A stretch of 43,515 bases of DNA from an archaeon (GTDB lineage: Archaea > Nanobdellota > Nanobdellia > Woesearchaeales > UBA9642), in NCBI GenBank assembly GCA_043806035.1, contig JAZDHK010000041.1, positions 1 to 43,515 of the forward strand, in the 5' to 3' direction. Position numbers and translations under genes: made by a program. How positions within the stretch are numbered: the stretch's first letter is position 1; every line of letters starts with the position of its first letter. Under the pieces are notes generated by a model that saw only the letters and a list, made by a program, of their open reading frames with translations, ran no database searches and was not told where the DNA came from. Positions 4,048 to 22,064 of this stretch are shown in pieces.

Positions 4048-4476
4048 ATGGGAAGTCATGACTTTAACAGGGAAATGGACCATTACCTAGCTAAGAGGAG
4101 GAAATCCATGGGAGAAGAACCCTACACGCAGCAGACACTCAAGAAGGAAGCAGAAGAGCTCGACAAGACAGAAGAGCACATGGAAGAACTGGAAGAAGAT
4201 GTGGTGGAAGAAACAGAAGAAAAAACCCAACAGGGAAATTTTATCACGCGGCTCTTCCAACGATTCACGGCCAAAGAGGACAGCGTCGAGGTAGAAGAGG
4301 GCGTTGAGGTTGTCGATGTTGCCCACGAACAGCTCGATGAAGATGTCCGCTTGGTGCTCAAGCTCAGCTACAACTGGCTTAGCTATCTGCCTAAATCAAA
4401 GCTTGACGCGTTCAAGGAAAGCCCTGACTTCGAAATCTATAAGGAAGTCCTGAAAAAGTACGGGCTGATTAAGTAA
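4048..4476 (+). CDS. Hypothetical acidic protein with helical C-terminal domain
   Basis: Start at ATG 4048 after ggaga, with a tttatata box at about 4008. Glu-rich middle; C-terminal LP..KL..FKES.DFE.YKEVLKKYGL. Confidence 0.6.
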   Translation: MGSHDFNREMDHYLAKRRKSMGEEPYTQQTLKKEAEELDKTEEHMEELEEDVVEETEEKTQQGNFITRLFQRFTAKEDSVEVEEGVEVVDVAHEQLDEDVRLVLKLSYNWLSYLPKSKLDAFKESPDFEIYKEVLKKYGLIK

Positions 4477-4507
4477 TATTTTTATTCTCTTTCTGATTTC
4501 TCCTGCC

Positions 4508-5266
4508 ATGAAGCTCCTCACCTATAATATTCTTGACGGTGGACGGGAAAGAACAGACATCCTGCAGCGCATCATTACTGGCCAACAACCAGACATCGTT
4601 GCCTTGCAGGAAGCGAACAATTTCTCTCCAGAACAGCTCGCTGCATGGAAAACGGCGCTTGGCATGCAGCACTACATCCTCGCACGAGGAGGGGAACAAA
4701 CAGAGAATGGCACGTATGATGTCGTCCTTTTCTCAAAACATCCTCTACATGAGGTCAAGGCACTGAAGTTGCGCAACGCAGCGGCATTCGGAGCAATCAC
4801 GTACAACAAAGAACTGTGCATAGGCAGCGTCCACCTCAGCCCGTACACAGAGGATGACAGAAAAAGCGAACTGGAACAGATACTCTCCGCAATTACGCAG
4901 TACAAGAACTGCATCCTTCTAGGAGATTTTAACTCACTCTCTCACACTGATGACTATGGCAATTCCTGGAAGAACTGGAGCGAGCGCAGGAAAAAACGAT
5001 TCATGACCAATGGCAGGATCAGACACACCATAACGAACATGCTTGCCAAGCACGGATTTGTCGATGTGGGAAACCATCTGCACAACCACGACCTGACCTA
5101 CAGAGAACAGGTGCGCATCGACTACGTTTTCGTCACCAAGCCACTCCTGCCGGACGTGAAAGCAATAACCGTCCTGAAGCATGCGGATACGGCAAAGGCA
5201 TCAGACCATTATCCTATCGTCGTCGAGTTTTCCTCGTCGTCTTCTCGTAAAAGCTCAACTTCCTGA
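4508..5266 (+). CDS. Endonuclease/exonuclease/phosphatase (EEP) family protein
   Basis: TYNI, PDIVALQE, VHLSP, LGDFNS, RIDYVFV and ASDHYPI motifs. Confidence 0.92.
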   Translation: MKLLTYNILDGGRERTDILQRIITGQQPDIVALQEANNFSPEQLAAWKTALGMQHYILARGGEQTENGTYDVVLFSKHPLHEVKALKLRNAAAFGAITYNKELCIGSVHLSPYTEDDRKSELEQILSAITQYKNCILLGDFNSLSHTDDYGNSWKNWSERRKKRFMTNGRIRHTITNMLAKHGFVDVGNHLHNHDLTYREQVRIDYVFVTKPLLPDVKAITVLKHADTAKASDHYPIVVEFSSSSSRKSSTS

Positions 5267-5570
5267 CGAGCTTGGTGAGATTCATCTTGACCTGCTCAAG
5301 ATGCACGTATATTCTGTACACGAGATAGAACAAGACGATGATGCTGCCGTACACGAACAAGTCCAGCCCTCGCGTTATGCCGACCGCATTGGCAATCTTT
5401 GTCGTCACGCCGGGAACGATGGCAACGCCGATGATGCCTGCCCACACGACGCACCAGAACACGAACTCTGTCGTGGACATGTTCTTCTTGCGAAATGCCA
5501 AGTACACTCTGCTCCAGGCGAACAAGGCGAAGATGATGATGATGACCTGAAAGGGCTCGATAAATGCCAT
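5214..5570 (-). CDS. DUF2304-like membrane protein
   Basis: Three TM helices, IANAVGITRGLDL, and C-terminal LTKLVRKLS. Confidence 0.8.
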   Translation of the reverse strand: MAFIEPFQVIIIIFALFAWSRVYLAFRKKNMSTTEFVFWCVVWAGIIGVAIVPGVTTKIANAVGITRGLDLFVYGSIIVLFYLVYRIYVHLEQVKMNLTKLVRKLSFYEKTTRKTRRR

Positions 5571-5713
5571 TTCCCCAGGAAGATGAAGACGATATAAAAA
5601 TATTGTGGCGAAAACGTCTATCCGCCATTAAAAACAAGGGCCGAAGCGGTTTCTTCAGTTTTCCGTATCAGCAAGCCACCGATTCCCGCAAAGAATTTAT
5701 AAAACAGTGAGGA

Positions 5714-7405
5714 ATGCGTACACTGATGACTGCCGAATATATTGAAACGCCTCTTCTCATCATAGGTAGCGGCATAGCAGGACTGCGAGCTGCCATCGAA
5801 GCGAGCAAGCAAGGAGTGCAGGTCATCATCATTACGAAGTCAAAAATCACTGATGCAAACACGTACTACGCGCAAGGCGGCATAACAGGAGTGGATCCTG
5901 GCCGTGTAAAGAGAGGAGAGGACAGCTACGAATCGCTCACCCGTAACACCTTGGCTGCAGGCGACGGAATTTGCGACAAGACAGTCGTTGACTATTTCAG
6001 CAAAAACTCCTTCGAGCCCATACAGTTCCTCCTGCAACACAACGTCCCTTTCTCAAAAGAAGCAGACCATTTCGTACTGCACCAGGAAGGAGGGCACGAC
6101 TTTCCAAGAATCTACTGCGTTGCGGACTACACAGGCAAGGCAATAGAAGAAACGCTTGCACAAACAGTCCTTGCGGACAACAACATCACCGTTTTCGAAT
6201 ATCATCAGGCCATAGCACTGCTGACAAAAGCAAAGCTTGGCTGTTCGGGAGAGAACAGATGCATAGGCGCACATGTCATAGACAGGAAATCGGGAATGGT
6301 GAAGACGTTCAAGGCAGATGCGATACTGCTCGCGACGGGTGGTGGGGGAAGAGTGTTCCAGTTCACGAGCAACCCCGACGATGCGACGGGGGACGGCATT
6401 GCCATGGCATATGCTGCAGGTGCCGTTATTGCGAACATGGAATTCTTTCAGTTTCATCCAACCGTATTCTATGAACCAGCGAACGCGGAGTCAAGCGACA
6501 GACGATTTTTGCTCACGGAAGCCCTGCGCGGGGCGGCGATGGGGGGCATCCTCACCACTACTCCATCATCAAAAGAGGACTTTGTGCTCAAGTACGATGC
6601 ACAGGGATCTCACGCGACCCGTGACAAGGTCTCGCGGGCAATCGATACAGAGATGAAACGTGCAGGGCTAAAGAACGTGTACCTCAACGTCACCACAGAC
6701 GTGACGAAAAAATCCGATGAATACATCAGAGAGCACTTTCCCAAAATATATGAGCACTGCATGAAGCGAGGAATAGATATCACCAAACAGCCAATACCCA
6801 TCATCCCTGCAGCACACTACACCTGCGGCGGCGTACTCGTCGACATGTCGGGGAAGACAAACATTCAGGGACTCTACGCGATTGGCGAGGTTGCCTGCAC
6901 GGGCCTGATGGGCGCTAACCGACTCGCATCAAACTCGCTCACGGAAGGAGCGCTTTTCGGGAAGCTCGCCGTGCAGGATGCTCTGCAGTTCAGCAAGACC
7001 AAAAATACGGAGTGTGTGCCGTTGTGGTCGACGGAAGGCATTGTCCAGCATGCAGACATGGCAACCGTCAACCAAATATGGGACATCACCAGAACGACCA
7101 TGATGAGCCTGTGCGGCATCGACAGAACGCAAGAGCGCTTACAGGCAGCGTGCGCGATCCTCGATAGCCTCGGCACGGCCGTCAACAGCATTTACTGGAA
7201 CTACTACCCTAATGACCAAATACTCGAGCTCAGGAATCTGCTGCAGACGGCAAAGCTGATCGTACACGCAGCGCTCTTCCGCAAAGAAAGCAGAGGCGGG
7301 CACTTCAGATCAGACTATCCTGCAAAAGATGCTGCTTTTGAGGGAATGACGATACTCGAGCAAGGCAAGGAACTCAGGATAGAGAAACTGCATTCTGAAC
7401 AATAG
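5714..7405 (+). CDS. nadB: L-aspartate oxidase
   Basis: IIGSGIAGL, NTYYAQGGI, EGGH..PRI, MEFFQFHPT, LLTEALRG, AHYTCGG, GANRLASNSL and RKESRGGHFRSDYP. Confidence 0.9.
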   Translation: MRTLMTAEYIETPLLIIGSGIAGLRAAIEASKQGVQVIIITKSKITDANTYYAQGGITGVDPGRVKRGEDSYESLTRNTLAAGDGICDKTVVDYFSKNSFEPIQFLLQHNVPFSKEADHFVLHQEGGHDFPRIYCVADYTGKAIEETLAQTVLADNNITVFEYHQAIALLTKAKLGCSGENRCIGAHVIDRKSGMVKTFKADAILLATGGGGRVFQFTSNPDDATGDGIAMAYAAGAVIANMEFFQFHPTVFYEPANAESSDRRFLLTEALRGAAMGGILTTTPSSKEDFVLKYDAQGSHATRDKVSRAIDTEMKRAGLKNVYLNVTTDVTKKSDEYIREHFPKIYEHCMKRGIDITKQPIPIIPAAHYTCGGVLVDMSGKTNIQGLYAIGEVACTGLMGANRLASNSLTEGALFGKLAVQDALQFSKTKNTECVPLWSTEGIVQHADMATVNQIWDITRTTMMSLCGIDRTQERLQAACAILDSLGTAVNSIYWNYYPNDQILELRNLLQTAKLIVHAALFRKESRGGHFRSDYPAKDAAFEGMTILEQGKELRIEKLHSEQ

Positions 7406-7406
7406 T

Positions 7407-7421
7407 CCGGGCGGGGCTATA
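7407..7421 (+). repeat. Direct repeat R1 (CCGGGCGGGGCTATA), tRNA-Gln-like 3' end
   Basis: Identical 15-mer at 8095-8109 and a 13-mer at 9525-9537. Archaeal tRNA-Gln genes typically end ...CGGGGCTA. Confidence 0.8.
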
Positions 7422-7503
7422 GTCCCTAAAGTGACATTCAAGGGTCTATTTTTCCGGTTCTTTTAGCGAAAAATATATAAATTTCATGATACTTATGGAT
7501 ATT

Positions 7504-7713
7504 ATGGCTACCACAATATCCATATCAACGGCACTGCGAGATAAACTAAAAAATCTTGGACGCACGGGCGAGTCGTACGAAGACGTCATTGCCAGGATGT
7601 ACGAAGCGACGCGAAAGAACCTCCTGCTCGCGTACCTCTATGACACGTCAGACTGTGTCAGCATCGACGAAGCATTGGCAGAAGCGAGAAAACGATGGCC
7701 AAAGTCACGATAA
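7504..7713 (+). CDS. RHH-like antitoxin
   Basis: MATTISISTALRDKLKNLGRTGESYEDVIARM is a strand-helix-helix pattern. Overlaps the downstream toxin-like gene. Confidence 0.75.
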   Translation: MATTISISTALRDKLKNLGRTGESYEDVIARMYEATRKNLLLAYLYDTSDCVSIDEALAEARKRWPKSR

Positions 7714-8033
7714 CATCTTCTTTACGAGAGGACATTCTCAAGAGGTTCAAGGGAGATGCAGAGAACATATTCTTGCGCATGAAATCGCTCGAGGCAGAGC
7801 CGCACAAAGGAAAAGCTCTTGCACATGTAGCTGAAATAGTCATCAAGGAGCTTAAACATGAAAAATATCGTTTCTATTTCATCACAGACGGCAGAGTCCT
7901 GAAATTCGGCACGGAAGATGAACTGGCAGCATTACTCATAAAGTTTGTTCGGATGTCTGAGAAGAAAGACCAACAAAAGGTCATTAACAGTATCAAAGCG
8001 GTACTGCAGTCGATGGGTTTCAACGGTTTCTGA
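7695..8033 (+). CDS. RelE/ParE-fold toxin-like protein
   Basis: KVTIT...LEAEPHKGKAL...IKELKHEKYRFYF; 112 aa directly downstream of a small antitoxin. Confidence 0.65.
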   Translation: MAKVTITSSLREDILKRFKGDAENIFLRMKSLEAEPHKGKALAHVAEIVIKELKHEKYRFYFITDGRVLKFGTEDELAALLIKFVRMSEKKDQQKVINSIKAVLQSMGFNGF

Positions 8034-8094
8034 TGCTGTCTGTGTTGTTGCACTAAGAAACGGAGTCCTCTTGACACGATGGCACCATCCACCG

Positions 8095-8109
8095 CCGGGC
8101 GGGGCTATA
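8095..8109 (+). repeat. Direct repeat R2, tRNA-Gln-like 3' end
   Basis: CCGGGCGGGGCTATA, identical to R1. Confidence 0.8.
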
Positions 8110-8141
8110 AACAGTTTTGTGACATCAGAGAGACCAAATTT

Positions 8142-8735
8142 TTACCATTCAATAAACGCTTGGATGGCATGTTCTTTTCTAAGCTGTATCAAGTTTTTTT
8201 CTTCAATTATCTTATCATCTGCAGTAATCTGTTTTGAATTGTATGCTTTCTTAATTTTTTCAACAAGAAATCTCCGTTCATGAGCTAATTTTTTTATGTC
8301 TTCATTGAAAAAGTATATTTGCAAATCTTCTCGTAATTTTTTTTGTTTACTTTCCATCCTGATGATATCCTTACAGATATGAAGAAATCCTTTGATACAT
8401 TTTTCATAATCTGAATCATCAAGCTGGTCGAGAAATATTCGTATGGTTTGTTTTAGTGCGGATATCTTGAATTGTATGTGTCGCATTCCATGGCCTTTTT
8501 TATGATGATGTATCATCGTTTCTTTTGATTCTGTTGTGCCCTCAACTAGATATTTTGCTGATGAGAGGCTTAGGTTATATTCATCCTCCACAAGAGAATT
8601 TGTTTCTTCGAGCTCTATCTTCGTACCTTTTTCTGAATAGGTTATTCTCCAAGTGTTTTCTGTTTCTGAACGTATGTTCTGAAGATGTTTTCGGTTAGCA
8701 TATTCCTGAAGTATGTATCTGCTTGAAGATTTCAT
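8142..8735 (-). CDS. Hypothetical protein with His cluster (candidate toxin)
   Basis: 197 aa with IHHHKKGHGMRHIQF. ATGA overlap with the upstream gene. Confidence 0.6.
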   Translation of the reverse strand: MKSSSRYILQEYANRKHLQNIRSETENTWRITYSEKGTKIELEETNSLVEDEYNLSLSSAKYLVEGTTESKETMIHHHKKGHGMRHIQFKISALKQTIRIFLDQLDDSDYEKCIKGFLHICKDIIRMESKQKKLREDLQIYFFNEDIKKLAHERRFLVEKIKKAYNSKQITADDKIIEEKNLIQLRKEHAIQAFIEW

Positions 8736-9400
8736 TTTAGTACCTTCATGATATCTGAATATAACGAATCTCGTGATAGATTTGTCCGATTATATGCCTG
8801 TTTCCATTTACTTTGGCTATTGTAATCATCAACTGTTTCTAACTCATACAACTTTACATCGAATGTTTCTTCTAAGATTTGTTTCACACAGATTAAATAA
8901 ATCATTTCCTTTTCTTTTTTAGGCAATGTTGAAGGGCTTGTCCATTTTTTGTCAATCTTTACATTTACGATGTCTAAATCAACTTCCCAGCCCATATTTC
9001 CATTTTGTACTGAACTGTCAAGATTTGCTGTTAATCTCTTCGATCTCAGAAGCGCTATGATTGACAGGTCATTGTAAGTGCAAACAACATCATAACACTT
9101 GTTGTCTAATTCTACACTGACTGTGGTTGAAGTTCTTGCATATTTTGTGCCTACGACATTGTCTTTAAAAATAACCTCGGTTCCACCACCGTATCCAGTT
9201 CCATCGTCAAATCCGTGACCTGAAGCAGTTCCTCCGCCATAACCAGGATCATCTAGCATACCAACCATTTTTATTAATCTTAACAGTATCTGCTCGTGGG
9301 TTTCCTTACCTTTGGCTAGAGATTCCAGCATTTTCTTGGTTCGCTCTGACAGCCGCAGCGATGTTTGCTTATCCCGAGTGCTTACTTTAATTGTGTTCAT
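8732..9400 (-). CDS. Protein with N-terminal RHH-like antitoxin domain and extended C-terminus
   Basis: TSLRLSERTKKMLESLAKGKETHEQILLRLI resembles the antitoxin at 7504. Start placed at ATG 9400. Confidence 0.65.
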   Translation of the reverse strand: MNTIKVSTRDKQTSLRLSERTKKMLESLAKGKETHEQILLRLIKMVGMLDDPGYGGGTASGHGFDDGTGYGGGTEVIFKDNVVGTKYARTSTTVSVELDNKCYDVVCTYNDLSIIALLRSKRLTANLDSSVQNGNMGWEVDLDIVNVKIDKKWTSPSTLPKKEKEMIYLICVKQILEETFDVKLYELETVDDYNSQSKWKQAYNRTNLSRDSLYSDIMKVLK

Positions 9401-9416
9401 TTCGATTACCTTAGTT

Positions 9417-9434
9417 TGTATGCAATGTATGCAA
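9417..9434. promoter_or_regulatory. Tandem TGTATGCAA x2, putative RHH autoregulatory operator
   Basis: Perfect 9-bp tandem repeat between an AT-rich TATA-like region (about 9444-9456) and the start codon at 9400. Confidence 0.4.
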
Positions 9435-9524
9435 AATATGCTTTGTATATTTAAATCTTTTGATTTTGAATAATGCTTTTTACTAAAAGTTGGTCTCTGC
9501 CATGTCACTTAACCGATTGTCCAG

Positions 9525-9537
9525 CGGGCGGGGCTAT
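9525..9537 (+). repeat. Direct repeat R3, tRNA-Gln-like 3' end
   Basis: CGGGCGGGGCTAT, 13 nt shared with R1 and R2. Confidence 0.75.
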
Positions 9538-9564
9538 GTGCTATTAACGATAGCAGCGTCATTC

Positions 9565-10140
9565 CTAATAATTTTCCTCATGCAGTTCGAAGAACGACTG
9601 CGGGTGCAGGCAGGCGGGGCATTTTGCGGGGGCGGTCGTCCCCTCATGCAGATAACCGCAGTTGCGGCACTTCCAGATGCGTTTTTCTCCACGCACGAAC
9701 ACTTTGCCTTCCTCAAGATTCGTGAAGAGCTTGACGTATCGTTCCTGATGCGCCTTCTCGACAGTCGCGATCATCCTGAACGCCACGGCAATGTCGGGGA
9801 AGCCTTCCTCCTGAGCAATTTTTGCGAATTCAGGATAGAGCATGGTCCATTCTTCATGCTCACCTTCAGCTGCCGCCTTGAGATTTTCAAGCGTTGTTCC
9901 TATCTTTCCTGCAGGATACGTCGCCGTTATCTGCACGGGCCTGCCTTCCAGGAACTTGAAGAACCGCTTTGCATGCTCTTTCTCATTGAGGGAGGTCTCT
10001 GCGAAGATGGCCGAGATTTGTTCCAGACCTTCTTTCTTCGCCTGCGACGAGAAATAATCGTAGCGCATGCGCGCCTGACTCTCGCCAGCGAATGCTTTGA
10101 GGAGGTTCTGTTCGGTTCTGGTTCCTTGGAGCGGTTTCAT
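9565..10140 (-). CDS. rbr: Rubrerythrin
   Basis: NLLKAFAGESQARMRY, EKEHA and EKAH, plus a C-terminal rubredoxin domain WKCRNCGY...CPAC. Confidence 0.95.
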   Translation of the reverse strand: MKPLQGTRTEQNLLKAFAGESQARMRYDYFSSQAKKEGLEQISAIFAETSLNEKEHAKRFFKFLEGRPVQITATYPAGKIGTTLENLKAAAEGEHEEWTMLYPEFAKIAQEEGFPDIAVAFRMIATVEKAHQERYVKLFTNLEEGKVFVRGEKRIWKCRNCGYLHEGTTAPAKCPACLHPQSFFELHEENY

Positions 10141-10844: not shown

Positions 10845-12038
10845 TTATTTGTTGCTCATAATCTCAATGACATCCAGATGCTGCAGCACATGATCCTTGC
10901 CTATGGGCAGGCGCTTCTTGACGTCCATAGCCTTCACGAAATTCTTTCCGAAATCAGTGTGTAATTTGTAGGCGAACTCGAGCGCAGTCGTCGTCCCGGG
11001 AAGCAAGAAGCAGTCAGGCAATACTCTGCCGTACTGGTCCTCTAGCTTGTGCATGCCGCCAGGGAATACTGCTTTATACTTCAGCAGTTCAAAGACGGCC
11101 CTGTTCAGCACGTCCTGCACCCCCGTAGACCCCCCCTGATCAAGAACAGTCGTCTTAATGAATGCGAGCGCTGCCTGCTGCTTGTCGCTGAGACTTCCTG
11201 TAATTTCGTAATTGTTCTCCCCAGGAACGTACTCAATGAGATTATGCTTTGCTGCTTCCTTTAATGCAAGCTCTGATTCTGCAGAAACAGGCACGATGAG
11301 ATACTCAGGAAATTCCTTTTGTAGCCGCTCATAATTCTCCTTGCCCGTGCTCACATCTATTTTGTTTGCGGCAATAATCATGGGCTTTGCCTTCTTCCTG
11401 AGCAAAGAGGCAAGATGATGCAAGTCATCCTCAGTCCATTCCAAAATTCTCCCTCTATCCAGCCGGAGCTTTTCGATGCTGTCTTTCACCATCAGCTCAT
11501 CAACACCCATTCCCGAAAGCTGCTTTGCTATTGCCCTGTCGACGTCAGCATGCTCCTGCTGCACTTGCCTCGAGAATCTCCCCCAGGTCTTTTTCATGAT
11601 ATCAAGATACCAAAAGTCAAGCTCCTCTTCAAGAAATTTGATGTCCTCCGTAGGATCCCTCGTTCCGGGTGGGACAGGTTCTCCCTTCTCGTTCGTGCTG
11701 CCAGAAACGTCAATGACGTGAATGAGCGCGTTCGCCATGTTCAGATCGGAAAGGAACTGGTTGCCCATGCCCTTGCCTTCATGGGCGCCAGGGACGAGGC
11801 CTGCTACGTCGATCATCTCTACAGGCACGAAGCGGTTGTGTTTGAGACAAAACCCTTCTCGAGGATTGCACTGCACCTTAAAAAAAGTGTCCACGCACGG
11901 GATCTTGACGTATCCTGCCCCCCTGTTCGGAGCTATAGTTGCAAAGGGATAATTCGCGATGAGCACTTCAGCCAAAGTTGTGGCCTTGAAAAACGTGCTC
12001 TTGCCTACATTTGCTTTTCCCACGACTCCTATGAGCAT
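10845..12038 (-). CDS. ychF: OBG-family translation-associated GTPase/ATPase (archaeal YchF/Ygr210 type)
   Basis: GKANVGKST, YPFAT, DVAGLVPGAHEGKGMGNQFL, NKID, and a C-terminal TGS domain (FAYKLHTD). Confidence 0.92.
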   Translation of the reverse strand: MLIGVVGKANVGKSTFFKATTLAEVLIANYPFATIAPNRGAGYVKIPCVDTFFKVQCNPREGFCLKHNRFVPVEMIDVAGLVPGAHEGKGMGNQFLSDLNMANALIHVIDVSGSTNEKGEPVPPGTRDPTEDIKFLEEELDFWYLDIMKKTWGRFSRQVQQEHADVDRAIAKQLSGMGVDELMVKDSIEKLRLDRGRILEWTEDDLHHLASLLRKKAKPMIIAANKIDVSTGKENYERLQKEFPEYLIVPVSAESELALKEAAKHNLIEYVPGENNYEITGSLSDKQQAALAFIKTTVLDQGGSTGVQDVLNRAVFELLKYKAVFPGGMHKLEDQYGRVLPDCFLLPGTTTALEFAYKLHTDFGKNFVKAMDVKKRLPIGKDHVLQHLDVIEIMSNK

Positions 12039-12107
12039 AAACAACAGCAAACGAGGACGGTATAAAAATGTTTCTGCGTATTGCTACTTTTTCATTTCAG
12101 CTAACTT

Positions 12108-12113
12108 TTTAAA
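12108..12113 (+). promoter_or_regulatory. TATA box of the giant phosphotransferase gene (probably leaderless)
   Basis: TTTAAA about 25 nt upstream of GTG 12136. Confidence 0.45.
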
Positions 12114-12135
12114 TGTACTGCCAAGAAAAAGAACC

Positions 12136-15100
12136 GTGTTCATCAAACCCTTCACTGCCTTAACTATGCGAGACGTTTCCATTGCCGGAGGCAAAGGTGC
12201 CTCTCTGGGAGAGATGCTGCAAGCAGGCATCCCCGTTCCCGACGGCTTTGTCATTCTTGCCAGCACATTCGACGTATTCCTCAAGACAAACAAACTCGAT
12301 GCCACCATAGCAGCCATTCTTGCAAAAACAGAACACGAAGAAACGGCAGCTGTAGAGGAATCATCAAGAAAGATACAGACACGTATCCTCAATGCGGCAA
12401 TTCCCAAAGGCATCCAAACGGAGATTACTGCAGCATTCGCGAAGCTTGACACGATGTACGTCGCCGTCAGAAGCTCAGCAACAGCCGAAGATTCCTCCAG
12501 CGCAGCCTGGGCGGGACAATTGGACAGCCATCTCAACACTACAAAAGCAACGCTCCTTGAGAATGTGAAGCGCTGCTGGTCCAGCCTCTTCACCCCCAGA
12601 GCCATTTTCTACAGGTTCGAACAGAAACTCGAGAACGAACACGTCTCCGTCGCTGTCGTCGTCCAAAAAATGGTGGAGAGCGAACGATCAGGCATAGCGT
12701 TCACCGTTCATCCAGTGACGCAGAACAGGCAAGAGCTGCTCATCGAAGCAGGCTACGGCCTTGGTGAGGCAATCGTTTCAGGGCAAGTGACGCCTGACAA
12801 CTACACCATTCTCAAAAATCTTACTATCAAGGAAAAGAATCTTGCCGAGCAGACACGGCAGATCGTCAAAGGACAGGACGGCGGCGTGATGTGGGTTCCA
12901 TGTACGAAACAAGGACAGACGCTCTCTGACAAGGAAATCATCGAACTCTCGCAAATACTCCTACGCATCGAAAAGCATTACGGCTTCCCCAGCGACATCG
13001 AATGGGCGTACGAGAAAGGAAAGTTCTACATCGTCCAGTCAAGGCCGATAACGACGCTCACACCAGAGGAACCAACCCCTGTTGTTCCCTCGGGGCAGGT
13101 TATGCTCACCAAAATATTCTCCCGACAGAAATCCCTGATGTACATGATGATGTGGGACATTTCTGAACGTATAGGATACAAGGATTTCATCAACTATGAC
13201 CTCAAGCACAGCGTCTTCATCTATGATGGGCTGACGAGAAAAACATCCGTATGGTATGACCTACAAGAAGCAGAGCACATCAAGCAATTGCTCTTTGCAA
13301 AAGTCAAGGCGGACAAGACCTTTGTTGGAAACATCATCGCAAGACTGGACAAGCACTGGAAGCTCATTTCACCTTATTTGCTGAAAAAGAGCAGCATACG
13401 CTCTATCAAAGAATTCGAGCAGTACTACTCGAACATCACGCAGTGGTGGTCGGCGATGAACACAGTCTATCCCTTGATCAACGATCCCGATCTCTCTCCT
13501 GCAGCAAGCAGGACGTTCCTGCTCTACCGAGAACGTACAGAACGCTACACGGGAGAGATGGACACTACCATCTGCAATTTTTGGAAAAAATTGCTCCATT
13601 CCGATTTGGCAGAATTTGTCCTTCTCGATGAGGCGATCAAACTCTCGAAAAAAGAGATTCCTGCAGAACGTAAATCGATAGAAGAGAGAAAACGAGGATT
13701 TGGCATCTACAAAGGCAAACTTTACACGCCGACGGCGCTGAAGCAACGTATGGAAGAGCAAGTCCTTTCTTTGCACAAGGTAGAAACGCAGAACGTGCAG
13801 CAATTTACAGGTGTTACTGCATTTAAGGGCAACGTGCGGGGGCGAGTGAAGAAAATCATCGTCCGAGAAGACATCCGTGACTTTCGGCAAGGAGAAATAC
13901 TCGTTGCAGAAACGACATTCCCCGATCACGTTCCCGCCATGAAGAAAGCTGCCGCCATCATCACGGACGAGGGAGGCATTACCTGCCATGCAGCGATAAC
14001 AGCAAGAGAACTCAAGATTCCCTGCATCATCGGGACAAAAATAGCGACGCAAACACTCAGCGACGGCGACCTCGTCGAAGTAGACGCCACCGCAGGCATC
14101 GTACGCATCCTGACTGAGCAAACGTCTTCTCTCGTCGACACGTTCATCGCAGATCAGCATGGTAAAGAGATCACAAAGCACGAAGGCAACTTCTCTCTTC
14201 TTGTCTGGGGGACGGCTGCATCGCTGCAATCAAGTCCACTCTACAAGAAATACTACGCTGGTGATTTTAGCAGTCTGCTTTTTCTCGTTGAAGAAAAACG
14301 TGGCATCGGCTTCTTCAACATGGACGCGTACAAGCGCTGCGCAGAACAGGCAATAGATCAATACGTGCACGATCGTTTTCCCTTACTTGATGCATGCAAA
14401 AAAATTTTCGTCACCATCAAAAAAATGTATGATACCTACACTACAGAGACGCTCAAGACGTTTTCGGGCAAAGCACTTGAACAGATTATCATTCTTGCAT
14501 TCCAGACCTGGCGTAATTTGCAAGTGCTCACCCTCTTCTGTGAGGCGCTCGATGAGCACATGGTTAAGGCATATGCTGATAAAGAAAAAATAAAGATTGA
14601 CATCAACAGTTTCTTTGAGCATGCGTCCCTGTGTGACTTCGAGGAATTCCTCGCTATACGAGATAGGGCTCTGCTCGAGGAGAAAAGACCCGCATGGGTG
14701 CTTTCTAGCTATCTCTTTACGCCGAAAGCGACACCTGCATTGATTAATCAACTGATCAAAGAATCAGGTGGGCAGAAGAAACTTCGAGAAGAACTGCAAC
14801 GCTCGCTCGACCAAACCAAGAAAAATAAACAGCGTTCTGCAGCGTACAGAACAACACTTTCTGGCAAAGTGTGCAAACTCTACGACTACGTCAAGACGGC
14901 CATTGCATTGCGGGACATGCGCAAGGCAGATACGTTCAAGAACATTGCAGTCCTCTCTGACAGTGTCAGAGAAATGTTCAAGCGCATGCATCTTGATGAA
15001 GAAAATATCATCTATGCTCGTGCAGAAGACTTTGAAGAGAAAACATACGAGAACAAAGACTATAATGCCCTTCTACAGAGGAGAAAGCACGGTGTTGCAG

Positions 15101-18100
15101 TCCTTTACAGTGCAGCTGTAACCAAGGAAGAATGTGTGCCTTTCGAGGAAACGCGAAACAAAATATTCTCAGTTCAGGATGCCGGAAAAGAAAAAGACGT
15201 TACGGGAAATTGCGCTTGTTCGGGGAAAGCACAAGGGGCAGCACGCATCATCCTGAGCAGCAAAGATTTCGAAAAATTCCAGCAAGGAGACGTTCTTGTC
15301 ACATCCATGACGAGACCTGAATTTGTCCCGCTCTTGAAGAAAGCGTCAGCCATCATCACCGACGAAGGGGGCATCACCTGCCACGCAGCAATCATCTCTC
15401 GTGAGTTAAAGATTCCTTGTATCATTGGCACTAAGCATGCAACACGCACAATTAAAGACGGTCAGCTGCTTGAGATTAATGCCTCTGCAGGAGTCGTGCG
15501 CATCATCGAGAACCAGCAGCAATGGACGAAGCTCTGGGAGGACAGGTCATACGGCCTTGGCATCGTCTGCAGCGCAGAAAATTCAGTAACAGAACAGTTC
15601 ACCAAACGGTTTGACGTCGCTATGCAACTTATTGTTATTAGATATGAGAACGGCAAAAGCTCCTGCTATTGTCTGACCAATGATTTGCGAGCAGGAGGAC
15701 AAAAGATCATCGCAAAAATCAGGACGAGCGACTTCGCAAAAAAGACAATAAACGAGGTTAGAGCAGAGACGGAGAAGCTGAAATCATCCATTTCCCCGAT
15801 ACTGGATATGGAATTGCAGAGCAAAAATTATGAGCAATTGACAAACATGTATCGTGACGTTTTGCAGCGCCTTGAAGAATTCTATGCGGTCGCATTCATC
15901 CCCATCTTCTTGGAGACGGGAGAGAACCAGCTCTCAGATGAGACAGAACGCATCATCAAAGAGGCACTCGCATGCGAGAAACGAGAAAAGGAATTTGCAG
16001 AAATCTTCACCGTACTGCTCACGCCAACGACTCCCTCAACCATCATGGAAGAAGAACTCGCCTTGCTCCGTACGCTCAAGCAACTACGCGGATCTCCCCA
16101 AGAAATACTGCAGAGCATCCTCGTCAAAAAACACATTCGTGATTGGTCCTGGATTAGCTTCAATTTCGTTGACAAGATAGAATGGGATGAGAGCGTCTAT
16201 GCGGACAGGATACGAAAGATACTGGCAGAGAAAAAAATCGATCAAAAAATGCGCGAAATCCTCGACTATTCAAAAACGATACAGAAAAAGCAAGAATCCA
16301 TTCTCAAGAGCATTCGCTTCTCAAAAGAGGAGTTAGCACTCATTACTGCAACACGTCAATTCGCTGAAGTGAAAGAATACCGGAAGAACATCATCACGCT
16401 ACTCTTCTACTGTTGTTTTATCATTCTCAAAGAATTGGCCAGCAAGAAGAAAAGATCTCTGCCGGATATGAACTTCCTCACTCCCAACGAGATAGCAGAG
16501 CAGAAATACACAGAGGCAAAGGAGAGAATGACGTATTCTGTCATCCTTGTCAAGGATGGCAAATCCACCATCCTCACTGGCGACACTGCGCGAAAGAAAG
16601 CAGAAGAACTGCAGCTTGACGCAGAAGAGAAGATTGCAAACGTCGATGAACTCAAAGGGACGCCCGCACAAATTGGAAACGCAAAAGGCACCGTGCGCAT
16701 CGTGAACTCATTTGCTGATGTCAAAAAAGTCCAGGAAGGAGATATTCTCGTGAGCATCGCGACGTTCCCTGACCTCGTACCTGCAATGAAAAGAGCGGGC
16801 GCCATCGTCACGGACGAAGGGGGAATGACCTGCCACGCTGCCATCATCTCCCGAGAGCTCAAGAAGCCCTGCATTATCGGGACGAAGATAGCGACGAAGG
16901 TGCTGCACGATGGTGATATTGTCGAAGTCGATGCAAATAACGGTCTTGTACGGCGAGTCACGGAAAAGAAAACGTTCACGAAATCATATACGAGAGACTT
17001 CTCCATCATCATGGAAGAGGCATGGTATCATGGCTGCACGAAAGGACTGCAGGACGTGTTCGGTTGGACGATGCAGCACCTGCCGTTCGCCATCTATTAT
17101 CTCAACCAAGGATCCATCGAGGTATGGGAGAATGAAAAAGCGCGTAAGGAACTGCTCGACCGCATCCTTGAAGCGAACAAAAAAACCGCATTCTTGCAGA
17201 ACGTCCAGAAGAAATACGCAGCACTGCTCAAGCAGCTAGAGCCATCCTGGAAAAAAGGATATGCGGAGAATCTTCCTGCATTCGCGCAATCCCTTTTTGC
17301 CATCATGCCTTACTTCGTCGTCCAATACTACACTGCACTTGATGAACGAACCCCTCCTGCTATTCGGAAATTGGCGCTTGGCATGCGCAACACCGACGTC
17401 TTGTTCGATTGTTGCGACAAGATAATCAGGACATCGTTACTCGGAAAATCCATCATCAGAGGAGTTGAGACCTGCGTGCTTGAAAAAGAGCTTGAAAAGA
17501 TCCCTCCACCAAACGTTCTTGAGGAGAGAAAGAAACATTTCGTCGTCATTCCCGGAACGGTTGAAGCATGTCTGCCTCTAGAAAAATATGTAGAACAGAA
17601 TCCTACCGTACAACTCGTGCACACCAAAGGAGATTTTGACGGGCAACGATTGCAGGGCACGTGTGCATTCAAAGGCAAGGCGTCAGGAACAGTCCGTATA
17701 CTAAGAACCAAGGACCAGATAGCGCTTATTCAGGAAGGGGACGTGCTTGTCTCGCCCATGACCACTCCTGACTTTCTGCCTGCCATGAAGAAGGCAGCTG
17801 CCATCATTACCGATGAGGGAGGGATAACGTGCCATGCAGCTATCACTGCCCGTGAGCTCAAGAAGCCAACGGTCGTTGGCACGGAAATAGCGACACACGT
17901 ACTCAAGGACGGCATGTACGTTGAAGTTGACGCAGATAACGGGCTGATTCTTTTGCAAAAAGGCCAAGACAATGCACAAAATAATGCATTCACGAAACTT
18001 GTCGAAGAAGTCAAGCAAACACCCATGGACATCCAGAAAGCACAAGGAAACATCTGCGGACCAGACCTCGTGTTTCCCGTGTACGCATCAGCATCCATAC

Positions 18101-20862
18101 TTCCAGGAACGGCATACCCGCTCCAGCTCGGATACGTAAAGGAACTACACTTCCTCCAAATGACTCCCGTAACAGCATTAGCCAACCTCACACGCTCGTT
18201 ACGGACGATGATGAACACTCCTGAACGCTTTGACGCCATTCTCAAAAACGCGCACAAGGCAGCAGAACAGATGGATGCCGCATGGGCTGACTATCAACGA
18301 AACGGCTTCAGCAGCAAAACGTTCGACACGCTCATAACAAACATACGTGCATTCTGGCAGTACGGCATCCTCGGAGAGGATAAGGGTGCATTCCTCGAAT
18401 CCATACTCATCCCCCTTCTTGTCAAAAATCACGAACTTACTCAGAACGAGGCGCACAGCCTGCTCTCCGCACTCACCCATCCAGAAAGACCAGCATCATT
18501 CAGCAAGGAACGTCTCGATTTTTACAACTTGTGCCTTTCTGTCTCATCACTACAGGATACGCAGAGCAGTACAGCAAATGCACTCTGCAACAAACCATTG
18601 CTCACGAAACTGAACCGATACGTGACGGAATACTTTTTCAAAGACACGAACTTTGTCGACAGAAAAATAGTCACTCCAGAAAGCGTCTTGGCAGATATAC
18701 AGAAAGAGCTGCACGACATCAACGCCGTTCGCCAATCCCGCAAGGAAATACTCAATGGATTTGTTACGGTACGAAAAGAAAGAGAACACGCCACAAAAAA
18801 ATACACCTTCAGCGTAGAGGAAAGAAAGAAACTGGCATTTGCCCAAACATTCATCAGCTTTGTTGACGAGCGAAAAGAAGCAATGATGAAAACATTCTAC
18901 TACTTCTTCTCTGCCATTCATGACATTTGCGACAAACTCCATTTGTCCTATGCTGATGTGCAGTGGTTGACGGTCGATGAAATTCGTGCAATCCTGAATG
19001 AAAATATGCAGTTCGAACTAACGCGTGTACAGCAACGAAAACAGGGAACGATGCTCGTCTACTATCCAGGAAAACCCGTAATCATTTACACAGGAGGGCA
19101 GGCAGAGGCACTCTATGCCGTGTCGCAACATGAAGTGTACGAGGCAACCGTGAAAGGAATGGTTGCAAGCCCAGCAAAAGATGGAAAACGCATCAGAGGC
19201 AGAGCACGAATCATCACGAACCCTTCAACAAGCACATTCAACAAAGGAGACGTGCTTGTCGCAAGCATGACACGTATAGAGTTCGTGCCGCTCATGAAGA
19301 AAGCAGCAGCCATCATCACGGATGAGGGAGGCATTGCCTGTCATGCAGCCATTGTCTCCAGAGAATTAAACATTCCCTGCATCATCGGCACGAAAAATGC
19401 AACGCAAGCGCTCAAGATCGGAGACCTTCTCGAGGTGGACACAACGACGGGCAGGGTACACGTAATCGAGCGAAAAACAGACATGCAAGAACTACACGAA
19501 CGCGTTGCATCAACAGCATGGTACAGGCAAGGAGGATCCTTGCTGCCGTTCTTCATCAGCACGCCCTACCAATGCGTGTATCAGGCATGGGGGCAGGATG
19601 CTGGATTCATCATCCAGCAAGGCATGGACAACATCGCATACTTCAACAAAAGCATAGAGAAGGAAAAACTCGATGAGGCAATAGCAGCATCCCTTGAAGA
19701 CAAGCAGTTCTTGCAGAAAAAGATGAAGGAATGGAGAGTTCTCGTGCGACTGCAGCAAGAAGAACTCAACATGCTGCTGCAGGAACCTACACGAGACATT
19801 CGTGCGTTCGTCAAGGCAACCATCGATGCCTGGGCAGCAACGCTCTTCATCGAAGAAACTGATCCCTGGGGGGATATCGTCCTGCACGACTATCTGCGCA
19901 CGTATGGTGTTTCAGACAAAGAGCTTGCCATACTCACCTCTCCCAAACACTACGGCTACCTGCAACAGGAAGTGCTTGATTTCTGGAAAGCAGTCGAGAA
20001 GGGAGGGGCTCTCAAAAAACATCACGCAACGTATTCCTGGTATTTGGCGTCATGGCTGCACGCCCCGCAACTCACTGAAGAACACTTCCTTGGCAGATTG
20101 CACAAGAAAGGAAAAGTGGGCATACGCAAAGAAGCCAACACCATACGCAAACACCGCCAGGAGACGGAACGGCAGCGGCAGCACCTTCTCAAAAAATATG
20201 CGTTCGACACAAAAACTCGGCGTGTGCTCGACTACTTCAGAACACTGAACGACTGGCGTGATGAACGGAAAAGAGAACTTGTCTGCAAGACAAACACCCT
20301 TCTCGATCAGCTCATCCACCGAGTGTGCATGTTGAACGCCATTCCCCTGCAGGAAGCAAAACACCTTGCCTTCTTCGAAATCAGCAGTCTCCTCCTTACC
20401 GAACAGTACAAGGAAGAGCTGAAGAAGAGAAACCAACAATCGTACGCGTACTGGCAAGACACGCCCGGACACTACACGTATTTGTGTGGGGCAGAGGCAG
20501 AACAGCTCAAGGCAGCCCTCGAGGAAGCCCTCAAAAGTGCACAAAAGGACCTCTGCGGCAGGCCAGCCTATCCAGGAAAAACTCAAGGAATAGTCAGAAT
20601 CATCAATGCGCCCGCTGACTTTTCAAAGATGAATCCTGGAGACATTCTCGTTTCGGTCATGACCCGCCCTGAACTCGTCCCTGCGATGAAAAAGGCAGGA
20701 GCGATTATCACTGATGAAGGAGGCATTACCTGTCACGCTGCCATCATCTCCCGAGAGCTCAAGATTCCGTGCATTGTCGGCACGCAATTAGCAACCACCA
20801 TACTGAAAGACGGAGATGTCGTAGAAGTCGATGCTATGCAGGGCAAAGTTCACAAACTATAG
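12136..20862 (+). CDS. Giant modular PEP-utilising-family phosphotransferase: PPDK_N ATP-grasp domain plus 6 x [acceptor-like domain + phospho-His swivel]
   Basis: N-terminal GGKGASLGEM, VAVRSSATAED, VVVQKMV and DIEWA...QSRPITT. Six TDEGGxxCHAAI motifs with His codons at 13987, 15382, 16834, 17833, 19342 and 20734. No C-terminal PEP-binding TIM barrel. Start placed at GTG 12136 (2908 aa) because the track start overlaps ychF. Confidence 0.9.
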   Translation: MFIKPFTALTMRDVSIAGGKGASLGEMLQAGIPVPDGFVILASTFDVFLKTNKLDATIAAILAKTEHEETAAVEESSRKIQTRILNAAIPKGIQTEITAAFAKLDTMYVAVRSSATAEDSSSAAWAGQLDSHLNTTKATLLENVKRCWSSLFTPRAIFYRFEQKLENEHVSVAVVVQKMVESERSGIAFTVHPVTQNRQELLIEAGYGLGEAIVSGQVTPDNYTILKNLTIKEKNLAEQTRQIVKGQDGGVMWVPCTKQGQTLSDKEIIELSQILLRIEKHYGFPSDIEWAYEKGKFYIVQSRPITTLTPEEPTPVVPSGQVMLTKIFSRQKSLMYMMMWDISERIGYKDFINYDLKHSVFIYDGLTRKTSVWYDLQEAEHIKQLLFAKVKADKTFVGNIIARLDKHWKLISPYLLKKSSIRSIKEFEQYYSNITQWWSAMNTVYPLINDPDLSPAASRTFLLYRERTERYTGEMDTTICNFWKKLLHSDLAEFVLLDEAIKLSKKEIPAERKSIEERKRGFGIYKGKLYTPTALKQRMEEQVLSLHKVETQNVQQFTGVTAFKGNVRGRVKKIIVREDIRDFRQGEILVAETTFPDHVPAMKKAAAIITDEGGITCHAAITARELKIPCIIGTKIATQTLSDGDLVEVDATAGIVRILTEQTSSLVDTFIADQHGKEITKHEGNFSLLVWGTAASLQSSPLYKKYYAGDFSSLLFLVEEKRGIGFFNMDAYKRCAEQAIDQYVHDRFPLLDACKKIFVTIKKMYDTYTTETLKTFSGKALEQIIILAFQTWRNLQVLTLFCEALDEHMVKAYADKEKIKIDINSFFEHASLCDFEEFLAIRDRALLEEKRPAWVLSSYLFTPKATPALINQLIKESGGQKKLREELQRSLDQTKKNKQRSAAYRTTLSGKVCKLYDYVKTAIALRDMRKADTFKNIAVLSDSVREMFKRMHLDEENIIYARAEDFEEKTYENKDYNALLQRRKHGVAVLYSAAVTKEECVPFEETRNKIFSVQDAGKEKDVTGNCACSGKAQGAARIILSSKDFEKFQQGDVLVTSMTRPEFVPLLKKASAIITDEGGITCHAAIISRELKIPCIIGTKHATRTIKDGQLLEINASAGVVRIIENQQQWTKLWEDRSYGLGIVCSAENSVTEQFTKRFDVAMQLIVIRYENGKSSCYCLTNDLRAGGQKIIAKIRTSDFAKKTINEVRAETEKLKSSISPILDMELQSKNYEQLTNMYRDVLQRLEEFYAVAFIPIFLETGENQLSDETERIIKEALACEKREKEFAEIFTVLLTPTTPSTIMEEELALLRTLKQLRGSPQEILQSILVKKHIRDWSWISFNFVDKIEWDESVYADRIRKILAEKKIDQKMREILDYSKTIQKKQESILKSIRFSKEELALITATRQFAEVKEYRKNIITLLFYCCFIILKELASKKKRSLPDMNFLTPNEIAEQKYTEAKERMTYSVILVKDGKSTILTGDTARKKAEELQLDAEEKIANVDELKGTPAQIGNAKGTVRIVNSFADVKKVQEGDILVSIATFPDLVPAMKRAGAIVTDEGGMTCHAAIISRELKKPCIIGTKIATKVLHDGDIVEVDANNGLVRRVTEKKTFTKSYTRDFSIIMEEAWYHGCTKGLQDVFGWTMQHLPFAIYYLNQGSIEVWENEKARKELLDRILEANKKTAFLQNVQKKYAALLKQLEPSWKKGYAENLPAFAQSLFAIMPYFVVQYYTALDERTPPAIRKLALGMRNTDVLFDCCDKIIRTSLLGKSIIRGVETCVLEKELEKIPPPNVLEERKKHFVVIPGTVEACLPLEKYVEQNPTVQLVHTKGDFDGQRLQGTCAFKGKASGTVRILRTKDQIALIQEGDVLVSPMTTPDFLPAMKKAAAIITDEGGITCHAAITARELKKPTVVGTEIATHVLKDGMYVEVDADNGLILLQKGQDNAQNNAFTKLVEEVKQTPMDIQKAQGNICGPDLVFPVYASASILPGTAYPLQLGYVKELHFLQMTPVTALANLTRSLRTMMNTPERFDAILKNAHKAAEQMDAAWADYQRNGFSSKTFDTLITNIRAFWQYGILGEDKGAFLESILIPLLVKNHELTQNEAHSLLSALTHPERPASFSKERLDFYNLCLSVSSLQDTQSSTANALCNKPLLTKLNRYVTEYFFKDTNFVDRKIVTPESVLADIQKELHDINAVRQSRKEILNGFVTVRKEREHATKKYTFSVEERKKLAFAQTFISFVDERKEAMMKTFYYFFSAIHDICDKLHLSYADVQWLTVDEIRAILNENMQFELTRVQQRKQGTMLVYYPGKPVIIYTGGQAEALYAVSQHEVYEATVKGMVASPAKDGKRIRGRARIITNPSTSTFNKGDVLVASMTRIEFVPLMKKAAAIITDEGGIACHAAIVSRELNIPCIIGTKNATQALKIGDLLEVDTTTGRVHVIERKTDMQELHERVASTAWYRQGGSLLPFFISTPYQCVYQAWGQDAGFIIQQGMDNIAYFNKSIEKEKLDEAIAASLEDKQFLQKKMKEWRVLVRLQQEELNMLLQEPTRDIRAFVKATIDAWAATLFIEETDPWGDIVLHDYLRTYGVSDKELAILTSPKHYGYLQQEVLDFWKAVEKGGALKKHHATYSWYLASWLHAPQLTEEHFLGRLHKKGKVGIRKEANTIRKHRQETERQRQHLLKKYAFDTKTRRVLDYFRTLNDWRDERKRELVCKTNTLLDQLIHRVCMLNAIPLQEAKHLAFFEISSLLLTEQYKEELKKRNQQSYAYWQDTPGHYTYLCGAEAEQLKAALEEALKSAQKDLCGRPAYPGKTQGIVRIINAPADFSKMNPGDILVSVMTRPELVPAMKKAGAIITDEGGITCHAAIISRELKIPCIVGTQLATTILKDGDVVEVDAMQGKVHKL

Positions 20863-21980: not shown

Positions 21981-22064
21981 TACGGCTGCCGGGATTTGAA
22001 CCCGGGCTGCAACCTCTCTTCAGATTTGTGGGAGGGTTGATTGCTACCCCTACAACACAGCCGT
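21981..22064 (-). tRNA. tRNA-Gly(CCC) with 13-nt intron at 37/38 (intron 22016-22028)
   Basis: Acceptor ACGGCTG/CAGCCGT+A, D stem TTGT/GCAA, anticodon stem CAACC/GGTTG with loop CT-CCC-A|A, T arm CCGGG-TTCAAAT-CCCGG. 71 nt after splicing. Confidence 0.88.

Follow-up and report, generated by a model that had tools for sequence, protein, structure and literature searches.

What brought three identical copies of a 13-nt sequence to the interval between a nadB-like gene and a rubrerythrin gene of a Woesearchaeales archaeon, and what do these copies bound? The interval lies in the window analysed here, 43,515 nt of contig JAZDHK010000041.1 (C41) of the genome G000 (1.50 Mb in 42 contigs, 93.7% complete). 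The 13-mer, CGGGCGGGGCTAT, hereafter the core, occurs in the window exactly three times, at 7408-7420, 8096-8108 and 9525-9537, always on the plus strand, in agreement with a preliminary description of the sequence that had reported three copies of the motif in one orientation. With the preceding base included, copy 1 (7407-7420) and copy 2 (8095-8108) both read CCGGGCGGGGCTAT, with a leading C, and copy 3 (9524-9537, GCGGGCGGGGCTAT) has G at that position. When up to two mismatches were allowed, the window held four core matches against 0.36 expected, and none of 100 shuffled sequences reached four. The cores start 688 nt (copies 1 and 2) and 1429 nt (copies 2 and 3) apart and, measured between their 12-mers, enclose inner units of 676 bp (cassette 1) and 1417 bp (cassette 2). 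Copy 1 is of the attL type, with nadB to its left and an arm of cassette 1 to its right, copy 2 forms the junction of the two cassettes, and copy 3 is of the attR type, followed by host sequence. Short contigs from a public run, whose sample may be the source, span copy 1 (7096-7503) and copy 2 (7928-8156) with zero differences; the copy 3 junction (9468-9574) lies outside their coverage. We propose that each repeat is the core of an attachment site, copied from a tRNA-Gln 3′ end, and that together they bound two non-autonomous integrative cassettes, which were probably stacked by a tyrosine integrase acting in trans.

The core has its source in an intron-bearing tRNA-Gln(CTG) gene on another contig (C24:2692-2825; called by ARAGORN in intron mode, with an Rfam tRNA score of 44.3 bits), which ends in ...GGTTCGAATCCGGGCGGGGCTAT, and it corresponds to the T-stem 3′ strand, the acceptor 3′ strand and the discriminator base of this tRNA. 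The identity of the repeats with the 3′ end of the genome's own tRNA-Gln(CTG) confirms the tRNA-Gln origin that had been suggested for them. Exact copies of the 13-mer number seven in G000, every one at tRNA-Gln(CTG) or at cassette ends on C1, C25 and C41: the window has three, C1 has two at a distance of 1.9 kb, and the tRNA and C25 account for one each. The second tRNA-Gln of the genome (TTG, contig C4) differs and ends in CTGGGCGGGGCTAC. Many G000 tRNAs carry introns, some of them long; in the window, tRNA-Gly(CCC) with a 13-nt intron (21981-22064, minus strand) was found only by the intron mode of ARAGORN.

Inverted arms sit just inside the repeats in both cassettes. After copies 1 and 2, the core is followed by approximately 10 nt and then by GTGACAT..., and the left arm of cassette 1 (P′1, 7421-7453, plus strand, ..GTGACATTCAAGGGTCTATTTTT) forms part of a direct repeat (31 nt, 77%) with 8095-8125. 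The right arm of cassette 1 (P1, 8063-8094, plus strand) consists of GAGTCC plus 26 nt, then the core, and fits GAGTCC-N(26-27)-CGGGCGGGGCTA. In cassette 2, the left arm (P′2, 8109-8142, plus strand) is an inverted repeat of 9485-9518 and pairs with the right arm (P2, 9485-9523, plus strand; GGTCTC plus 27 nt, then the core); this pairing extends over 34 nt with 76% complementarity, and no other inverted repeat in the region is longer. For the left arm, a profile was made from 12 junctions, none of them from the window; it recovered 8095-8130 at E 3.7e-4 and 7407-7443 at E 0.013 in a whole-genome scan, where the core alone scores E of approximately 1. The corresponding right-arm profile gave a partial match only on P2 (9502-9537, E 1.1), and the right arm plus core at window 8077-8108 is identical to C25 2824-2855 at 31 of 32 positions. 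The GC content is 0.45 in cassette 1 and 0.35 in cassette 2 against 0.50-0.57 in the flanking genes, and both cassettes therefore look foreign. No recombinase family was matched by the open reading frames (ORFs) of 7407-9537, nor was there a PF00589 match anywhere on contig C41, so the units indeed lack a recombinase, as first described.

Cassette 1 carries two overlapping genes. The product of gene 1 (7504-7713, plus strand; 69 aa, or 75 aa if started at 7486) resembles ribbon-helix-helix (RHH)-type antitoxins, with matches to Pfam DUF7557 (8.6e-07) and VAPB_antitox (1.5e-05) and to NCBIfam PRK13696 (3.1e-09, under that model's cut-off), and a palindrome (7494-7524, plus strand; 14 nt, 93% complementary, 3-nt gap) that spans the start codon of this gene is likely to be an operator. 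Gene 2 (7695-8033, plus strand), which overlaps gene 1 by 19 nt, encodes a 112-aa protein that matched no Pfam family, toxin families included. Its AlphaFold2 model (pLDDT 91.4) has a RelE/ParE-type fold: the top rows of a Foldseek search of the PDB were all RelE/ParE toxins, weak as these matches were (best E 3.5e-3), and the archaeal RelE 1wmi_A gave a TMt of 0.73. We accept cassette 1 as toxin–antitoxin-like, with a predicted RelE/ParE-fold protein and an overlapping upstream antitoxin.

The same architecture recurs across the order. In 401 genomes sampled from the Woesearchaeales, searched with the G000 version of the core so that all counts are lower bounds, GAGTCC-N(20-34)-CGGGCGGGGCTA occurred in seven genomes, always with a gap of 26-27 nt, and a reversed control gave one hit in total. 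We listed 22 core-bounded cassettes in 13 arrays, from 79 bp to 8.6 kb in length, 21 of which contain no integrase homologue as judged by phmmer with three integrase queries and by a Pfam scan of part of the ORFs. Outside the window, the cassettes usually lie directly downstream of tRNA-Gln. In G023, the tRNA is followed by five same-orientation cores that delimit four cassettes of 560, 1574, 729 and 1442 bp, and the cargo of three of them comprises a glyoxalase-family gene and genes for a repeat-rich surface protein and a Fic protein; further cassettes of this genome are an AbiE-only one at tRNA-Gln(TTG) and one of 3.6 kb. Cargo elements of 7.8 kb (G049) and 8.6 kb (G334) likewise contain no integrase homologue. 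Cassette content thus varies widely among related genomes, in arrays with one core more than cassettes, as had been anticipated from the window. Synteny of antiporter genes, which lie by the core in G023 and by tRNA-Gln in G000, was dropped as an argument because the proteins are only 27% identical, and the four arm-plus-core hits in viral contigs all fell in phage-like sequence that was unrelated, for the most part coding, and lacked the architecture.

The toxin–antitoxin cassette recurs as a unit. The family of the 112-aa protein is present in 115 of the 401 genomes, with one to six matches each, a tally that takes in one unpublished genome (G149). Thirty toxin–antitoxin loci were examined, the window included, and nine of them have a core (at most two mismatches) within 400 nt, two being doubtful. 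In three genomes besides G000 the pair lies between two cores, in units of 682 bp (G255), 666 bp (G203) and 675 bp (G302) against 676 bp in the window; the promoter and coding parts of the four cassettes align, and their arms have diverged. Because the same small unit occurs in four families, independent decay is hard to invoke. A tRNA-Gln gene lies directly upstream of the pair in G255 and G302, and a tRNA abuts the pair in G313; at the pair of G203, no tRNA was called by ARAGORN or at the Rfam gathering threshold.

Some junctions outside G000 show peculiarities of their own. Upstream of the core at L169:1170-1225 (G203) and L018:780-845 (G025), the sequence resembles tRNA-Gln with an insertion in the T loop. 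At L068:6313-6550, from a Woesearchaeota genome (UBA153), the 230 nt after tRNA-Gln(CTG) contain two more exact cores and one inverted near-copy, each preceded by the same approximately 22-nt sequence, in a dense att-like cluster without cargo. In G101, a second copy of the tRNA 3′ end follows after a mere 79 bp (L053:11101-11203), and a junction at L053:13440-13496 keeps part of the T loop (..GGTTCGAATC plus core); the L053 junctions thus differ in the part of the tRNA that they keep, so the length of tRNA carried varies by element.

Within G000, three further contigs carry the architecture. On C1, the 1.9 kb between two exact cores have clear inverted arms and contain a gene for a TrmB-type regulator besides a 308-aa ORF; outside the left core lies a second copy of the toxin–antitoxin pair, 50% identical, beyond which follow a degenerate core and a left arm that, as in the window, ends in AGGGTCTATTTTT, with the spacing found there (judged by eye, not computed). 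A third copy of the pair, on C26, lies between a two-mismatch core and a GAGTCC arm with a degenerate core. Compared with the window, the toxin–antitoxin genes on C1 and C26 are inverted relative to the arms. On C25, an AbiEi/AbiEii pair has a right arm and a core after it and a right arm with a decayed core ahead of it. Right after the downstream core, two overlapping genes for 91-aa and 86-aa proteins (C25:2950-3472; L163) look toxin–antitoxin-like, and no core follows them.

A candidate for the integrase is encoded beside the tRNA that supplied the core. The gene at C24:2911-4020, 85 nt after tRNA-Gln(CTG), encodes a 369-aa tyrosine recombinase (PF00589, 3e-14; best NCBIfam match XerA, 2.7e-25, under cut-off) for which we read R, K, H-x-x-R and Y among the catalytic residues conserved in pairwise alignment. 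In G114, a 5.1-kb element at tRNA-Gln(TTG) with both arms has a homologue of the C24 integrase (31% identity by MAFFT, phmmer 6e-20) as its only recombinase and no transposase. In G334, two small cassettes and a long element whose integrase is a close relative of the G114 enzyme come after the tRNA; the 8.6-kb integrase-less element lies further along this contig. The recombinase whose element would share the ends of the cassettes, which the preliminary description had left to be found, is thus a tyrosine integrase in the G114 and G334 elements, with its homologue on C24. The C24 gene was the sole match of both these integrases in a tblastn search of G000, a genome with seven tyrosine-recombinase matches. 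Among 18 integrase-homologue loci, five have a core within approximately 350 nt of the gene and a sixth has a one-mismatch core 146 nt away; some of the others adjoin tRNA-Leu or tRNA-Asp.

How such cassettes would insert is suggested by the cores. When 18 junction cores were compared with the tRNA core of their own genome, no differences fell in GGGGCT and five fell in the five preceding bases, the flanks being free to vary; in G101, four cores begin with CGGA, CGGA, CGGC and CGGG. This pattern of variation fits site-specific recombination better than target-site duplication, and it places the strand-exchange region probably at GGGGCT(A), with the left half of the core supplied, in our model, by each incoming element. 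A cassette would consist of its cargo, a P′ arm (core, approximately 10 nt, then a G.GACAT...GGACTC-like sequence) and a P arm (a GAGTCC-like box, 26-27 nt, then the core), and would belong to a family of tRNA-Gln-targeting elements spread across the Woesearchaeales, whose recombinase-bearing members carry an XerA-like tyrosine integrase. The C24-encoded integrase would recombine a circular cassette (P-core-P′) with any resident core, in trans, and every insertion would add one cassette and one core. We consider it probable, with real reservations, that non-autonomous cassettes were stacked in this way by a tyrosine integrase acting in trans; the action in trans and present-day mobility are its inferred parts.

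Several observations weigh against this proposal. The contigs of four runs showed no excision products or circles, no empty sites or joints and no variant cassette orders, and at a depth of approximately 4-5 they are too thin to decide either way. Of the 10 other cassette-bearing genomes, 6 gave no match to the integrase clade, one of these 6 being rated 100% complete, and the identities among the integrases are low (24-31%). The left arm beside the C24 integrase fails the left-arm profile beyond the core, and C24 and C25 could not be joined (no end overlap of at least 20 nt), which leaves the autonomous element of G000 incomplete. Several cores are degenerate (C1 left, C26 and C25:1273), so some cassettes, perhaps all, are fixed or stranded. 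For comparison, neither a genome of the same genus nor a metagenome contig with synteny is at hand: among genomes of the family, the one other with nadB has no neighbours in common with the window, no other genome of the genus was found, and the closest metagenome relatives of the nadB-like gene are 67-69% identical and have different neighbours. Finally, there is no tRNA gene at the window array, and conservative recombination requires a resident core there.

This last point concerns the flanks of the array. To the left, the full-length nadB-like gene (5714-7405, plus strand) encodes an L-aspartate oxidase of 563 aa (Pfam FAD_binding_2, 3.8e-82, plus Succ_DH_flav_C), and its stop codon is only 1-2 nt ahead of core copy 1. 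To the right, the rubrerythrin gene (9565-10140, minus strand; 191 aa; Pfam Rubrerythrin, 2.9e-31, and RUBY_RBDX, 2.8e-15) faces copy 3 with its 3′ end, from the opposite strand. The nadB-like gene is present in 2 of 19 genomes of the family and is therefore itself accessory in this lineage. Upstream of copy 1 there is neither a tRNA nor a right-end arm; ARAGORN with default settings called no tRNA in the window, Rfam at E<=1 called none in 4214-8902, and no tRNA remnant was detected by Rfam at E<=1 at the non-tRNA loci. The trinucleotide GTC precedes both copy 1 and the left copy on C1, as is typical of right-arm junctions elsewhere, and the tRNAs have ATC there. Two routes to this site can be imagined. 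A cassette might have inserted at a secondary site that had the short overlap in common, after which the perfect cores would serve as targets for later insertions, or an upstream cassette might have been deleted as far as nadB; our assignment of the site to secondary-site insertion or upstream cassette loss is a guess. A hidden left boundary upstream of nadB was considered and set aside, because the arm-like motif at 5540-5566 lacks a core and falls short of significance (E 0.56). This motif is near the right-arm consensus (ATCGAGCCCTTTCAGGTCATCATC, minus strand) and falls within the opening codons of a gene for a small membrane protein.

The alternative that survives best, although we think it unlikely, is that the cassettes are immobile relics of integrase-bearing elements that integrated serially and then lost the integrase and most of their genes, without any movement in trans. 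Archaeal integrated elements do lose their integrase gene and integrate in tandem (PMC8371274), and the degenerate cores and arms at C25:1273, C26 and the left end on C1 would fit such decay, as would the missing integrase clade in 6 of the 10 other cassette-bearing genomes. Decay does not readily account for a discrete toxin–antitoxin cassette of approximately 670 bp that two cores bound in four genomes, each from a different family, as the same unit length is not expected from independent deletions. Against it also stand the 21 integrase-less cassettes of 22, most of which nevertheless keep the right arm at fixed spacing, and the three copies of the toxin–antitoxin cassette at three G000 loci.

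Improbable, in our view, is that a housekeeping Xer-type or other host tyrosine recombinase moves the cassettes, which would make the integrase clade carried by the elements dispensable. Bacterial IMEX elements and pdif modules exploit host recombinases in this manner; the integrase associated with the family is XerA-like, the tyrosine-recombinase matches of G000 number seven, and cassettes occur in genomes in which the integrase clade was not found. Against this, the core is a tRNA 3′ end and is not dif-like (similarity to archaeal dif was not compared), and full elements with the same arms carry their own integrase by the core.

Insertion by a transposon enzyme, in which a casposase (Cas1) or another transposase would place elements with terminal inverted repeats at the 3′ end of tRNA-Gln and duplicate 13-14 bp, is very improbable. 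In its favour, the direct repeats beside the inverted arms are about as long as those of casposons, they follow the tRNA-Gln variant of each host, and tandem casposon insertions have been described (PMC6563490). Cas1 (PF01867) was not found in the 93.7% complete G000 genome (a family B polymerase was not searched for), the G114 element has a tyrosine integrase and no transposase, and a gap of approximately 10 to 15 nt separates the arm boxes from the repeat. Moreover, a duplication that copies host sequence would not give the differences among the left core halves within the G101 array, and the same repeat also occurs at non-tRNA sites. The casposon origin considered in the preliminary description is therefore not upheld, on account of both the missing Cas1 and the junction-core differences, which fit recombination. 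Barely credible, finally, is an RNA-level signal for processing or termination, or a chance repeat: only the position at gene ends speaks for a signal, the repeat keeps its orientation even though the cassette 2 genes lie on the opposite strand, single-strand folds are no better than those of shuffled sequences, shuffling rules out chance, and the link to arms, integrases and tRNA-Gln holds across genomes.

Stacking by an integrase in trans, our preferred reading, has partial counterparts among known systems. The window has the tRNA-end direct repeats of a tRNA-targeting integrative element and lacks a tyrosine integrase of its own; an intact tRNA gene at the left repeat is absent from the window and present in G023, G114, G049, G255 and G302. 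It also has two marks of cis-mobilizable elements (CIMEs), namely att sites of an integrase-bearing relative and no recombination genes of its own. In Streptococcus, CIMEs are att-flanked, lack recombination genes and are accreted with, or left by, integrase-bearing elements, and they are thought to move by the integrase of a relative. The window cassettes are similarly att-flanked, recombinase-free and tandem; they differ in being archaeal, in targeting tRNA-Gln, in unit sizes down to 0.56-0.68 kb and in having no link to conjugation, and the G000 arrays lie away from both the autonomous element and the tRNA. In its working, the locus is comparable to a known kind of mobile DNA, the integrative elements that accrete in tandem at tRNA genes. 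It lacks two classical features of tRNA islands (its own integrase and a tRNA at the left end) and is unusually minimal in form and distant from the tRNA gene. The cassettes are best filed as non-autonomous, CIME-like members of a tRNA-Gln-specific integrase family, and not as casposons.

The tycheposons of Prochlorococcus are tyrosine-recombinase elements that stack at tRNA genes in genomic islands strewn with partial tRNAs, carry adaptive or defensive cargo in streamlined hosts and have experimentally shown mobility (bioRxiv 10.1101/2020.12.28.424599). Integration at a tRNA end, stacking at one site, adaptive or defensive cargo and a streamlined host are shared with the cassettes described here; the domain of life and the integrase family are different, most units here are integrase-free yet have both arms, and mobility at the window is inferred only. 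For archaeal tRNA-targeting elements, a tyrosine integrase, an att core at the tRNA 3′ end, tandem arrays and integrase loss have been described (PMC8371274, PMC6563490), and the cassettes differ from these in the conserved inverted arms at fixed spacing. In the available part of PMC8371274, 'dpann' and 'trna-gln' have no occurrences, and the available parts of both papers are silent on DPANN hosts, tRNA-Gln and cassettes of less than 1 kb. Casposons combine terminal inverted repeats and approximately 14-bp direct repeats with insertion at tRNA 3′ ends and tandem copies (PMC6563490), all of which resembles the window; here no Cas1 was found, the arms do not abut the repeat, and core variation fits recombination.

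Integrons have been reported in Archaea, Nanoarchaeota included, with many toxin–antitoxin cassettes (bioRxiv 10.1101/2022.02.06.479319). One- or two-gene cassettes, richness in toxin–antitoxin genes, a recombination site at the cassette end and a tyrosine recombinase encoded outside the cassette are common to both, and integron cassettes may bear a promoter or be promoterless, as in the arrays here. The differences are that there is no IntI-type integrase here, that the 12-14-nt core is a tRNA end and not GTTRRRY, and that genes lie on either strand. The C24 integrase scored 16.3 bits on the IntI model TIGR02249 against a cut-off of 265, and single-strand DNA folds of five junction and end sequences had z values of +0.40 to -1.09 relative to shuffles, the outer 9 nt of the arms being able to pair. 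Integron attC sites are imperfect palindromes that recombine as folded single strands, a mechanism that we do not propose for these junctions. The likeness to integrons drawn in the preliminary description holds for the outcome only. A broader reading, which we put forward tentatively and regard as doubtful, is an integron-like gene capture in the Woesearchaeales with the tRNA-Gln 3′ end as its landing pad, in which one- and two-gene cassettes with a site of approximately 70 nt (right arm, 12-nt core, left arm) would be stacked, shuffled and inverted in trans by the XerA-like integrase and occasionally seeded at secondary sites such as nadB-rubrerythrin, pooling toxin–antitoxin, defence and surface genes.

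DPANN archaea such as Woesearchaeota have small genomes, and to our knowledge little is known about gene exchange among them; a literature search found no description of this element family in Woesearchaeota. Movement of the cassettes in trans, if real, would turn tRNA-Gln and a few secondary sites into cassette docks, and toxin–antitoxin, abortive-infection (AbiE), Fic, glyoxalase and glycosyltransferase genes would spread across the families of the order by a simple recombination system of a 12-nt core, two arms and one integrase. Should integron-like capture be true, these streamlined symbionts would share a pool of toxin–antitoxin, defence and surface genes. Even if the cassettes are immobile, the locus would still be a clean record of serial integration and decay.

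The cargo of cassette 2 lies on the minus strand, in two genes that overlap by 4 nt: gene 1 (8732-9400; 222 aa from this ATG, in an ORF open to 9508) and gene 2 (8142-8735; 197 aa). The 222-aa protein is weakly RHH-like at its N terminus (residues 13-45; Pfam DUF7557, E 0.025, under cut-off). The 197-aa protein belongs to a family with 27 other clusters, all from Woesearchaeota/Nanoarchaeia or unnamed sources, and its confident predicted model (pLDDT 89) had no clear match among PDB folds, generic beta-sheet matches reaching Z 6.6 at best. In this family, H76, H78 and H86 are invariant and H77 and H82 nearly so. Neither protein matched an NCBIfam model at E<=1; weak matches were those of the 197-aa protein to PADLOC MTase_II (E 0.021) and of each protein to one uncharacterised PHROGs family (E of approximately 0.03). 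The earlier view that each unit is a two-gene toxin–antitoxin-like module hence applies to cassette 1, with its RHH protein and RelE/ParE fold; for cassette 2 it is at most tentative, the weak DUF7557 match being the one signal that points that way.

Beyond the array, a single ORF of 2967 aa occupies 11959-20862 on the plus strand of the window; as read from its translation, it contains approximately six repeats, with long spacers between them, of a module (..TDEGG.TCHAAI..RELK.PC..GT..) similar to the phosphohistidine swivel domain of PEP-utilising enzymes.

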